Source: Nanobdellota archaeon (lineage in GTDB: Archaea > Nanobdellota > Nanobdellia > Pacearchaeales > GW2011-AR1). From it: DNA of 64,000 nt. The notes under the pieces were generated by a model. It did not search any database and was not told the DNA's origin. It was given only the letters and a program-made list of their open reading frames with translations. Where the stretch lies: assembly GCA_038045945.1 (NCBI GenBank), contig JBBSXC010000001.1, positions 75,680-139,679 of the forward strand, written 5' to 3'. Positions 6,889-63,624 of the stretch are shown here, piece by piece. The position numbers and the translations under genes are program-made. The stretch's first letter is position 1. Every line of letters begins with the position of its first letter.

Positions 6889-7881
6889 TTATCTCTTAGT
6901 TTCAACACTATCAAAGAGAGCACTCAAACTATCACCCTTAATTGTTCTGTAAATAGCTTCACCAAATAATGGAATCAGAGATATGGTTTCAAGATTGGGA
7001 CTTCCACTGTTTACTAGGGTATCAGAAACAAATAGTTTGTCTAGTGTAGAAAATCTTTCTAGTCCTGCGCTGAATAGTCCGTGAGTTCCATAAGCATAAA
7101 CGCTTTTAGCCCCATTCTCTCTCAAAGATGCTTCAGTCATGGCTATAGTCCCACCAGTATCAATCATGTCATCAACAATTAGACAATTCCTGTCTTTAAC
7201 ATCACCTATTATTACAACTTTATCAACAACATTATCTTTAAGTCTAATTTTGTCACCTATAGCAACATTCACTTCTAGACCGCTGGCCCTTAGCCTCTTA
7301 GCAAGACTTCTAACTCTTTTAGCCCCACCCATGTCCGGTGAAACAACAGCTAAATCCTCAAAAATTAATGGGTGTTTACTTCCCAGATAATCGATTAGTG
7401 TTGGAAAAGAATAAAGATTATCAAAAGGAATATCAAAAAATCCTTGCATTGCAGGGTTATGAAGATCAACGGTCATTGCTCTGTCAGCATAAGTAGAGAT
7501 CATCTTAGCAAGAGCTTTAGCATTAACACTAACCCTACTTTCATCCTTTCTTTCTTGACGAGCGAAACGAGTATAAGGAAGAACAACATTTATTTCTTCA
7601 GGCGAAGAGAACTTTAGTGCATCAAGGACAAAGTTAAGTTCTGTGTACCAGTCTGATGGGGACTTGTTAGAATCATGAATTAGATAACATTGCCTTCTGC
7701 GAACGTTCTTAGCAATACGAAGTTTGAATTCTCCATCCTTAAAGTCTTCTCTTTTGACAGTGACTAAGTCTACCTCAAAATCTCTTTTTGGCTTATATAG
7801 AAGGTGATTATAAACACCGATAGCAAAATCGTAACCTTTACTGTTAGGATCGGCAATTATTGCAGCATCACCATTTTCCAT
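6889..7881 (-). CDS. prs: ribose-phosphate pyrophosphokinase
   Basis: FKDGE, PY..FARQER, VDLH, VSPDMGG, IVDDMIDTGGT, THGLF. Confidence 0.95.
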   Translation of the reverse strand: MENGDAAIIADPNSKGYDFAIGVYNHLLYKPKRDFEVDLVTVKREDFKDGEFKLRIAKNVRRRQCYLIHDSNKSPSDWYTELNFVLDALKFSSPEEINVVLPYTRFARQERKDESRVSVNAKALAKMISTYADRAMTVDLHNPAMQGFFDIPFDNLYSFPTLIDYLGSKHPLIFEDLAVVSPDMGGAKRVRSLAKRLRASGLEVNVAIGDKIRLKDNVVDKVVIIGDVKDRNCLIVDDMIDTGGTIAMTEASLRENGAKSVYAYGTHGLFSAGLERFSTLDKLFVSDTLVNSGSPNLETISLIPLFGEAIYRTIKGDSLSALFDSVETKR

Positions 7882-8026
7882 AAAATCTTTTGCCGTGTTA
7901 GCTATTTAAGGATTATTGGTATAGAAAAATAAATGTATGATTATGAAAACACGGTGCATCTTATATAAATAACTGCTTTCTTTCTCCGTGAAAAGCGGAA
8001 TGCTTTTTTTTTTGTTTGAATATGAA

Positions 8027-8194
8027 ATTCTTTGCTGTAATTAACTTCTAAATCAAGCTTGTACCATATTTTAGAATGGTTTGCTTTCTAGTTAATAATT
8101 CTGCAAAGAATCATTTTTGCTTTTAGGATAAGCGGCTATATCAAGTTTGTACCCTGTTTTAGAAGGGTTTACTTTCTAGCTTATCACTTAAAGC
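8027..8194. ncRNA. tandem pair of structured motifs (candidate ncRNA or riboswitch-like element)
   Basis: 44-nt cores at 8048-8091 and 8136-8179 (38/44 identical; 4 of the 6 differences form 2 compensatory pairs), each closed by a different outer stem. Confidence 0.65.
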
Positions 8195-8195
8195 T

Positions 8196-8240
8196 TCAAG
8201 AATGTTAATTCTTGAGACCCAAAAATCTTATAGATTTTTG
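8196..8240. repeat. double-hairpin intergenic element
   Basis: TCAAGAAT-gtta-ATTCTTGA then CAAAAATC-ttata-GATTTTTG; inverted near-copy at 63486-63532. Confidence 0.65.
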
Positions 8241-8524
8241 AGTTTTTTTTTATCAAGTCGAGTTGATTATTATTTTAAGAATTCTTTATGAGGACTTCTT
8301 TGTTAACTTTTAGATATAGAAAATCTTTCTTATCCTTACTGTATAAATTATTTGTCCTAGAATTCTTGTCTGAAATCTAACTTTTCTTTACTTCTTATCT
8401 AAGTACCAGTAGTACTTAAACTTATCTATTGATCACCCTTTACCATCTTTTTGCCACCCTCAATCCTCTAATTACTCAGATTTGTATTGGTGAAAGTGAA
8501 AGGTGATGATCTTTTGATTATAAA

Positions 8525-8580
8525 ACCCTGGAAGAGGCTTTTATGCACTTAAATTAGGTTGCACTAAGCCTCTTCTGGGT
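8525..8580. other. long intergenic hairpin
   Basis: GAAGAGGCTT (8531-8540) pairs with AAGCCTCTTC (8566-8575), extended by ACCC/GGGT outside and TGCA/TGCA inside. Confidence 0.6.
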
Positions 8581-8714
8581 AAAAAGAGGTGATATAATAT
8601 GTAGGCAAAAGACCTATTTAAACCTTTCGATATTGTTATCATTACACAATGACAATATCTGCTCTTTATTTTTGACCCGTGGGTTTATAATATTTGTTTG
8701 TTTGTGTTTTATTG

Positions 8715-9692
8715 ATGGATGATCAGCCCAAAATTGAGGTGAATAAAGTAGAGGTGAGTAGTACTGTTCTTGATAGTATGAATCAGGACGAGGTTTACGG
8801 TCTTCTTCTTGATAATGAGGTTGGTTGGCAGGCTATTCTTTATGATTTGATTAATACTGAGCGGCTTGATCCTTGGAATCTTGATCTTGTTGCTCTTACT
8901 CAGAAGTATTTGGAGAAGGTTAGGATTCTTGAGGAGGCTAACTTCTTTATTTCTTCTAATATTATTCTTGCTGCTTCTTTGCTTCTTAGGATTAAGTCTG
9001 AGATTCTTCTTGACCATTATATTCCTTCTCTTGATGCTATTCTTTATGGTAAGAAGGATGAGGAGAAGAAGTCTTTGGAGAGGATTCATATTGATGAGTC
9101 GCAGCTTCCTTTGATTTATCCTAGGAGTCCTATGCCTAGGAACCGTCAGGTTACTCTTTCTGAGCTTGTTAGTGCTCTTTCTCATGCTATTAAGACTGAG
9201 AATAGGCGTATTCGTAAGGAGCTTATTATTAGGTCTGCTAGGCGTGAAACTGATATTGTTTTTCCTAAGATGAAGATTCGTATTCAGGATCGTATTAGGC
9301 AGATTTATGCTAAGATTCTTTCTAAATTCCAACAAAAGAAGGAGCGTATTCCTTATTCTGATATTGCTTCTGGTCGTGAGGATCGTATTGCTGGTTTTTT
9401 GCCTGTTCTTCATCTTGATAACCAACAGAAGGTTTTTTTGCAGCAGGAGGCTCATTATGAGGAGATTTATGTTTGGGTTTACAAGCATTATAAGGAATTG
9501 AATCCTCATGTTGTTTCTGCCGAATTAGAAGAGGTTGATTCTTCTGAGATTGCTAATCACGAGCAACTTGAAAATTTTGATGCTCAGGAGCAGGAAATTA
9601 TTGATGAACTAAACAAGTCTAGCAAGCTTTCTGATAAGACTGGTTTTGATAATCCTTTAGGTAATTTGCTTAGTGAATCGGGTGCAGAATAA
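8715..9692 (+). CDS. scpA: segregation/condensation protein A (kleisin)
   Basis: LDPWNLDLVAL..KYL, AASLLLRIKSEIL, VTLSELVSAL, FLPVLHL..QQKV.L.Q. Confidence 0.9.
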   Translation: MDDQPKIEVNKVEVSSTVLDSMNQDEVYGLLLDNEVGWQAILYDLINTERLDPWNLDLVALTQKYLEKVRILEEANFFISSNIILAASLLLRIKSEILLDHYIPSLDAILYGKKDEEKKSLERIHIDESQLPLIYPRSPMPRNRQVTLSELVSALSHAIKTENRRIRKELIIRSARRETDIVFPKMKIRIQDRIRQIYAKILSKFQQKKERIPYSDIASGREDRIAGFLPVLHLDNQQKVFLQQEAHYEEIYVWVYKHYKELNPHVVSAELEEVDSSEIANHEQLENFDAQEQEIIDELNKSSKLSDKTGFDNPLGNLLSESGAE

Positions 9693-10955: not shown

Positions 10956-11137
10956 ATATTTATTACACTTACGAGTAAGTGATTGTGAGGGTATAAAAGA
11001 ATTGCTATTTGTTATGAAGTTGAAACTAGGGTTTTCTTTACTGCGAACAATGATTAAACTCCTGTAGTTTTGTGTTCATAGTATTGTTAGTGTTTTATCA
11101 GTTTATAAAATTATTGTTTGGAAATTCTTGTAGATTT

Positions 11138-63478: not shown

Positions 63479-63485
63479 TTTTAAA

Positions 63486-63532
63486 CATCAAAAACCTGCA
63501 GTTTTTGTGGTCTCAAGAATATTAATTCTTGA
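63486..63532. repeat. double-hairpin intergenic element
   Basis: CAAAAAC-ctgca-GTTTTTG-TGGTC-TCAAGAAT-atta-ATTCTTGA; inverted near-copy of 8196-8240. Confidence 0.65.
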
Positions 63533-63624
63533 CGACTGTCAAAAAAAGACTTTTCTGAAGCTTAAAATCTTTTAGAAGATTTTAAATATTCTTTATTATT
63601 TGTTTGTTAAAGTGGTGGTTGATT

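Follow-up and report, generated by a model that had tools for sequence, protein, structure and literature searches.

Do two look-alike hairpins lying side by side in a gene-free spacer of a tiny archaeal genome mark a new class of structured RNA, or something more local? The question is posed by a 64,000-nt stretch of a Nanobdellota archaeon of the DPANN group (GCA_038045945.1, contig JBBSXC010000001.1; hereafter the window), in which an 812-nt gap lacking any open reading frame (ORF) of at least 40 aa extends from prs to a gene for a ScpA-domain protein (scpA) and houses two adjacent units at positions 8027 to 8194. The host assembly is archaeal, 847 kb in length and 93% complete, and the window displays archaeal RNA-polymerase and ribosomal-protein genes along with one intron-bearing tRNA. 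An earlier note on this DNA had advanced the units as a candidate new class of non-coding RNA or riboswitch. We found that the new-class reading is not supported; instead, the units appear to be an orphan: a duplicated, species-specific hairpin that has kept its structure, in a spacer where small hairpin elements accumulate. Our preferred reading, to which we give a probability of roughly 0.42, is that they constitute a structural domain of a local, lineage-specific non-coding transcript, probably of the minus strand.

The two 44-nt cores (8048-8091 and 8136-8179) are identical at 38 of 44 positions, and their six differences include two compensatory pairs (AAGC/GCTT versus AAGT/ACTT and ACCAT/ATGGT versus ACCCT/AGGGT), exactly as had been described. 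The outer stems reported for them, ATTAAC/GTTAAT, ATTCTTTGC/GCAAAGAAT, GATAAGC/GCTTATC and GCTTT/AAAGC, are likewise present in the sequence; the further outer stem that closes each core (Table 1) is in roughly equal register in the two units. They had been taken to be unrelated to each other, which proves incorrect: ATTAAC/GTTAAT and ATAAGC/GCTTAT are homologous versions of one stem in the 88-nt register and contribute two further compensatory pairs, which makes the observation stronger. Since these stems share that register, the homologous unit grows to 57 nt, spanning 8040-8096 in one copy and 8128-8184 in the other, and has the structure ((((((.........((((....(((((........)))))..))))....)))))). 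Across it, 45 of 57 positions (79%) are identical, and the 12 differences comprise eight that fall in four double-changed pairs (unit positions 3/55, 5/53, 19/44 and 27/38) and four at unpaired positions. Watson-Crick pairing is retained at 15 of 15 pairs in both copies. The claim that the loops are nearly invariant is borne out, as 23 of 27 unpaired positions are identical, against in-register flanks that agree at only 7 of 20 and 2 of 11 positions, which is the spacer's 30% background. On the minus strand, the sequence offers a GA/GA pair and a UAGA/UCUA complementarity, both invariant between the copies, with the UAGA junction complementary to the UCUA loop of either unit.

Pairing in these hairpins is preserved non-randomly and far beyond chance. 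When 12 random substitutions were placed on copy 1 in 1,000,000 simulated sets, 1347 sets kept all 15 pairs, and a mere 5 in 1,000,000 did so with at least four double-changed pairs. Pattern matches in the 64-kb window number two, versus none expected from shuffles, and the fold of the 181-nt region stands at z = -5.39 on the minus strand and z = -3.46 on the plus strand relative to shuffled sequences.

No homolog of the units is detectable in the collections searched. BLAST of the 181 nt recovered only itself in its own assembly and, in 41 genomes, short low-complexity matches, the best foreign one (E 4e-4) lying over the linker and not the core. A covariance model built from the two copies (R1) scores each of them at 86 bits (E about 2e-20); run on 101 genomes at E up to 1, it matched in eight, with only the two own copies being significant. 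Its best match in the 100 other genomes of the family reaches 23.1 bits (E 0.026), it has no hit in the only same-genus genome (G001; the congener), and with filters off it reaches at best 11.9 bits in the syntenic 12 kb of the latter. A loop-anchored pattern found no match in the genome contigs of 185,579 species and two in metagenome contigs, both in one stretch that looks coding-like by eye and has non-complementary stems. Looser patterns yielded two genome and four viral contig matches, which keep only 5-8 of the 15 pairs and are at chance level. The proposal of a new class is not supported by this search with a covariance model and patterns across genome, metagenome and viral contigs. That the earlier note recognized no known family in the motif is borne out: Rfam 15 at gathering thresholds returns only six tRNA matches across the whole window, and the permissive scan of 7600-9000 (E up to 10) has as its best hit over the motif mir-6505 (19.5 bits versus a cut-off of 96), with no riboswitch or ribozyme over the motif even at that threshold. 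A small protein over the units is unlikely too, as the longest ORFs of the gap measure 21-33 aa and none spans them.

The congener retains the setting and lacks the units. Its prs product is 57% identical to that of the host, the ORFs on the prs side match in size and order (prs being the one verified), and its gap of 810 nt is followed by a 327-aa plus-strand ORF; the prs-scpA spacer thus appears to be a conserved gene-free gap with the same genes on either side. Significant likeness between the two gaps is confined to block A, hairpin H2 and block B (Table 1). At the place of the units, the congener has a single 58-nt segment that has GxTAAGCGG in common with unit 2 and forms a different 9-bp hairpin. 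The units accordingly look specific to the lineage of the host species. Separately, the congener (contig 35, 6161-6345) displays three tandem copies of an unrelated ~72-nt repeat just before its scpA-like ORF, each with an H1-like hairpin (GGTTTAAAAATCT...AGATTTTTAGACC; for H1, see below); this repeat is absent from the host genome.

The units adjoin a two-hairpin module, H1-H2, which is dispersed. BLAST of 7895-8265 against 401 family genomes recovered block A of the congener, contig 4 of the host itself (2282-2335, 84%) and several other genomes, with all matches outside the congener's block A falling on the query part 8191-8245. Of 40 genomes scanned with a covariance model of the module (R2; 76.4 bits at 8187-8245), three gave matches at E up to 0.01, namely at eight distinct loci in the host, three in the congener and four in a further genome (G014). 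The top of H2 covaries, and at about 10 of the 14 module loci beyond that in the spacer, a candidate same-strand stop-to-stop ORF ends at most ~130 nt upstream. On contig 4, the module immediately precedes the RNase P RNA core on its 5′ side (Rfam match of 49.4 bits, below the 84-bit cut-off) and lies within a 12-bp helix (CTGAGTAGTTGGG...CCCAACTACTCA) that brackets the gene, possibly an enlarged P1 or a stem used in processing. The helix itself is perfect (TGAGTAGTTGGG/CCCAACTACTCA; host contig 4: 782-3835, positions 1443-1455 and 1924-1935) and also encloses ~100 extra 5′ nt, including the module.

Some RT-16 RNAs (RF03019) of the same family carry the module as an insert (genomes G109 and G401; 77.3 and 69.8 bits versus a cut-off of 50), and its sense both there and in the RNase P region corresponds to the minus strand of the window. 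In the congener, it is placed after the TATA-like region upstream (...GTATAATAAA) and ahead of the 5′ end of mature tRNA-His, whereas the orthologous site of the host (10956-10975) reads ...GTGTAATAAATATG-tRNA without it. The module thus appears to be a present/absent insertion tolerated inside the precursors of essential RNAs, i.e., it behaves like a small insertion element, and such tolerance implies that it is probably not an efficient terminator in its sense orientation. The spacer region itself is not a member of RT-16, having no match in the permissive Rfam scan, and the best RT-16 score in the host genome is 22.1 bits against the 50-bit cut-off, away from the region of the window. RT-16 has matches in 59 of the 151 family genomes scanned (E up to 0.001); in 58 the score exceeds the Rfam cut-off, and many have 2-4 copies. 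The relevant text of Weinberg et al. 2017 (PMC5737381) has the RT-1 to RT-19 motifs adjoining reverse-transcriptase genes and gives their function as unknown; we found no literature on RT-16 that bears on the elements described here.

We posit that the units are paralogous copies of a ~85-nt irregular hairpin that was duplicated in the lineage of the host species, and that their pairing would since have been kept through compensatory substitutions. The transcript, most likely of the minus strand, would enter via the module (8245 to 8187), proceed through unit 2 and then unit 1, and end short of a separate prs promoter. Its role would be architectural: the hairpins might form a folded scaffold that resists nucleases or binds protein, or might separate or insulate small transcription units from one another; the units are unlikely to sense a metabolite. 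As all stem pairs are Watson-Crick, the units do not by themselves tell the strand; we infer transcription, its strand, its ends and the role of the units from sequence features. The minus strand is mildly suggested by the sense of the module in the RNase P region, in RT-16 and in the tRNA-His leader, and by the better fold of 12 of 17 module copies in that sense; we also count for it the better fold z of the units, their loops rich in A and the tandem G-A pairs that could form on that strand. On the plus strand, the 13 nt between the T10 run and the outer stem of unit 1 would leave no room for a promoter that transcribes all of unit 1. Together, these place the minus strand somewhat ahead of the plus strand.

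Several points weigh against a structural domain of a local transcript. No homolog was found to extend the covariation past two paralogs, and covariation between only two paralogs does not separate selection at the RNA level from processes acting on DNA hairpins; moreover, all compensatory changes could have occurred in one copy. The earlier note had read the pattern as selection on RNA structure: its premise stands, as pairing is kept beyond chance, and its conclusion is weakened in that DNA-hairpin processes could give rise to the pattern as well. Since the corresponding segment of the congener folds differently, the units appear to be evolutionarily short-lived. Among public runs, this DNA turns up in four groundwater DNA runs from a single study and in one soil run, none of them an RNA run. 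On the plus strand, the units lie between the T10 and T9 runs, each of which follows a hairpin, and T10 is succeeded by a TATA-like box conserved with the congener; this layout would suit a small RNA of the plus strand. TATA-like matches as such show no enrichment (19 versus 20.9 expected from shuffles). The module folds better in its sense orientation in 12 of 17 copies, a count weakened by four of them being near-identical copies from one genome. We also found no variants or relatives over 7700-8500, the contigs of the four DNA runs being identical.

Among the competing explanations, it is possible, if on balance unlikely, that the units are a DNA-level hairpin repeat without an RNA role of their own. 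They would then stem from a palindromic spacer element, of a general kind with the small hairpin repeats strewn through the intergenic DNA of this lineage, that was doubled by slippage or insertion. The complementarity of its stems would be maintained by hairpin-templated correction, through quasi-palindrome template switching, or because the copying process needs the DNA hairpin; such correction of DNA palindromes could generate the same pattern without selection at the RNA level. The spacer provides suggestive company for such a repeat, in the form of the dispersed module with its eight loci and its presence or absence at orthologous sites, and of the congener's own three-copy tandem repeat with an H1-like hairpin, and the absence of the units from the congener and all else searched is in keeping with it. 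Conversely, neither a Y1 transposase nor a reverse transcriptase was found in the 93%-complete genome, the compensatory pairs in four separate stems would need several correction events, and the retention of the loops next to flanks at background fits purifying selection on loops and stems.

Repetitive extragenic palindromes and their mosaic arrays (REP/BIME), Correia-type repeats and miniature inverted-repeat transposable elements (MITEs) are short intergenic imperfect hairpins whose pairing is kept by matched changes, and they are often co-transcribed with neighboring genes and lineage-specific. It is the module that resembles them. The units do not: BLAST and R1 find only two adjacent copies in the 847-kb assembly and none dispersed, neither terminal inverted repeats nor target duplications could be recognized, and no matching transposase was found. 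The module also recurs in this genome's RNase P region, in the manner of the lineage-specific expansion hairpins of stable RNAs, so that hairpins of this sort do travel within the precursors of stable RNAs in the host, whereas the tandem units have no recognizable RNA core.

A plus-strand small RNA is the other alternative that retains some force, and we consider it unlikely as well. It would start near 8045 from the box at 8015-8022 and end at H1 and T9 (8243-8251); it would cover unit 2 in full, only the inner portion of unit 1, and H2 and H1 in antisense. Much of its appeal stems from the T-runs: T10 (8004-8013) and T9 are the only two of at least nine in the 64-kb window, both are on the plus strand, and H1 with T9 is terminator-shaped on that strand. 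At the place of H1, the congener has a hairpin with a G-U pair valid only on the plus strand, followed by T5. Host and congener differ by covariation in the hairpin that precedes T10 (AAAAGC/GCTTTT versus AAAGAT/ATCTTT), and the box past T10 is conserved (TTTGAATATGAAATTCTT in the host, TTTTAAATATAAAATTCTT in the congener). The difficulty lies in the RNA so produced: a start at ~8045 would leave the 5′ arms of the outer stem and P1 of unit 1 untranscribed, though they are perfectly complementary and coaxial; the loops would be U-rich and GA/GA would become UC/UC; the fold z is weaker on the plus strand; and the module would be antisense relative to its orientation in the RNase P region, RT-16 and tRNA-His.

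The UAGA/UCUA complementarity also permits the units to be drawn as a pseudo-symmetric tandem receptor, in which the UAGA junction of each would pair with the UCUA in the loop of the other, and whose ligand would be either a small molecule or a dimeric protein. The receptor would belong to a ~320-nt modular minus-strand RNA that has a hairpin module in common with RNase P RNA, and would be a new, very narrowly distributed structured RNA of a DPANN archaeon. This reading is improbable.

The preference of the earlier note, a tandem aptamer or small ribozyme on a minus-strand leader controlling prs, is very improbable. Its model is easily seen: prs is downstream on the minus strand, the two units could make reciprocal contacts through UAGA/UCUA, and two similar hairpins with near-invariant loops, variable stems and a short linker recall the tandem sensors of guanidine-II (mini-ykkC). 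Guanidine-II RNAs, however, have ACGR tetraloops, whereas the units have 8-nt loops, no Rfam riboswitch or ribozyme match at E up to 10, no downstream expression platform (none overlaps the prs start) and no cross-species conservation. As a riboswitch class, the units fail on the same account, with no significant hit in the 100 other family genomes and a congener that has the same prs and spacer without them.

The prs gene, moreover, appears to own a promoter. An 18-nt block identical in the host and the congener (CTATTTAAGGATTATTGG) reads on the minus strand as AATAAT-C-CTTAAATA, i.e., as an element like the B recognition element (BRE) followed by a TATA-like one under the BRE/TATA consensus used here. 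Its 21-nt spacing from the ATG is fixed in both genomes although the bases between differ, and no Shine-Dalgarno sequence precedes the prs ATG; the prs mRNA is probably leaderless with its own promoter. With this element so placed, a long regulated prs leader is unlikely. A conserved T-rich stretch (CATTTATTTTT, also CATTTATTTT(T); minus strand, 7934-7924) further separates the units from the predicted promoter. Of the proposed minus-strand transcript heading toward prs, the strand is weakly favored by module orientation, fold z and the A-rich loops, and the link to prs is not supported in view of this promoter-like element.

Other known classes were considered and set aside. A kink-turn consists of a canonical stem, a 3-nt bulge, tandem sheared G-A/A-G pairs and a non-canonical stem. 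On inspection, the minus-strand GA/GA, which had been called kink-turn-like, is instead flanked by 2 bp with a 5-nt bulge opposite, and neither a 3-nt bulge beside the G-A pairs nor an adjoining canonical stem can be drawn. An archaeal H/ACA guide, with its ACA box 3′ of the lower stem, a guide pocket that varies from hairpin to hairpin and an apical K-turn or K-loop, does not fit on inspection: ACA lies 1 nt past the lower stem in unit 1 only (CUA in unit 2), the pockets (UAGA / GAUWUAG..) are near-identical in both units, unlike those of guides, and there is no K-loop. The RUGAUGA and CUGA box pair of C/D box small RNAs is absent from 8027-8194 on both strands, and no C/D family matches over the motif. 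As for a clustered regularly interspaced short palindromic repeat (CRISPR) array, which has three or more near-identical repeats with unique spacers of similar length and cas genes or a leader, there are only two repeats, they are just 79% identical, and each is inside its own outer stem. Finally, a protein-binding DNA site, be it a replication-origin repeat of the origin recognition box (ORB) type or an operator pair for divergent prs/scpA promoters, is scarcely tenable. Direct repeats with long A/T tracts at their sides, set in the extended AT-rich spacer of two divergent genes, would invite it. Archaeal origins have repeats around an AT-rich unwinding element, usually beside orc1/cdc6 and with a skew shift; here, the single Cdc6/Orc1 gene (Cdc6_C) is on another contig (contig 4), the cumulative GC skew has no turn near 8 kb, the compensatory changes suit a hairpin and not a duplex binding site, and the repeats are not kept in the congener.

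Blocks A and B of the spacer are conserved in the congener (Table 1). Within block A, the segment 7937-8013 has in succession the conserved stem CACGG/CCGTG, the covarying hairpin and T10, and has the appearance of a small RNA of the plus strand that ends in a terminator, back-to-back with the putative prs promoter. A sigma-70 promoter scan, which is not applicable to archaea, was used for terminator-shaped sites only. Before scpA, the ScpA-domain ORF has an in-frame ATG at 8715, ~27 nt 3′ of a TATA-like TTTATAAT (8684-8691), and a leaderless start at 8715 would fit.

Block B is widely conserved. With BLAST at E up to 0.001, 8510-8640 finds matches in 181 of the 201 family genomes, and a model of block B (R3) does so in 51 of 151 class-wide genomes, including all 17 of the family, mostly once per genome. 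Its core is a hairpin, CCCTGGRAGAGG...CCTCTYCTGGG, followed by AAAAAGAGGTGATA, ~20 variable bases and TATTTAAACCTTTCG. At 20 of 29 fetched loci, a candidate plus-strand stop-to-stop ORF of 259-343 aa starts 71-306 nt to the right; in the host, this downstream ORF is the ScpA-domain gene. An energy comparison split evenly enough to assign no strand, with 14 loci favoring plus and 16 minus. When the alignment is folded, the minus strand shows 16 pairs, of which 10 are double-changed and many G-U, versus eight on the plus strand, where the same columns become A-C; this folding favors the minus strand. Its minus-strand 5′ end resembles what we take to be the anti-Shine-Dalgarno 3′ end of 16S rRNA; a 16S rRNA gene is not in the host assembly. 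Block B has no Rfam match and has the look of a conserved ~76-nt small RNA not yet catalogued.

Table 1. Features of the prs-scpA spacer and its surroundings (window coordinates unless a contig is named)
Feature	Position	Strand	Remarks
prs	6889-7881	minus	ATG at 7881
Block A	7902-8032	none assigned	77% identity over 131 nt to the congener; contains prs BRE/TATA, stem CACGG/CCGTG, terminator-like hairpin, TATA-like box TTTGAATA at 8015-8022
Putative prs TATA box CTTAAATA	7903-7910	minus	21 nt from prs ATG (7881) in both genomes
T10 run	8004-8013	plus	preceded by hairpin AAAAGC/GCTTTT; terminator-like; closes block A
Unit 1, long irregular hairpin	8027-8111	minus, tentative	outer stem 8027-8035/8103-8111, 9 bp
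Unit 1 core	8040-8096	minus, tentative	stems P1 6 bp, P2 4 bp, P3 5 bp; 8-nt loop
Unit 2, paralogous hairpin	8118-8194	minus	outer stem 8118-8122/8190-8194, 5 bp
Unit 2 core	8128-8184	minus	P1 lengthened to G8127-C8185; 4 compensatory pairs versus unit 1
Module H1-H2	8187-8245	minus	H1 A-run/T-run hairpin and H2 CCTCAAGA..TCTTGAAG; directly adjoins unit 2
Palindromic hairpin H2	8189-8215		shared with the gap of the congener
T9 run	8243-8251	plus	right after H1; hairpin and T-run terminator-like on plus
Block B span	8517-8627		79% identity to the congener
Block B	8521-8596	minus	~76-nt hairpin; minus 5′ end AUCACCUCUUUUU (5′ end form AUCACCUC)
BRE/TATA-like CGAAAGG-TTTAAATA	8629-8615	minus	~25 nt upstream of conserved AUCACCUCUUUUU
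ScpA-domain gene	from 8694	plus	TTG as listed
Module copy	63485-63541	plus	
Module copy	contig 4, 2283-2339		
Module copies, five further			in host

The units offer a clean case of a hairpin kept by matched mutations between paralogs. They also advise caution, in that such signals in tiny archaeal genomes can arise in short-lived, species-specific hairpin repeats and are not proof of a new riboswitch class. Their surroundings matter more: a conserved gene-free island, a module that appears to be tolerated in an RNase P region and a tRNA-His leader, and a conserved, uncatalogued block B. These spacer elements are concrete targets for small-RNA sequencing in DPANN archaea.

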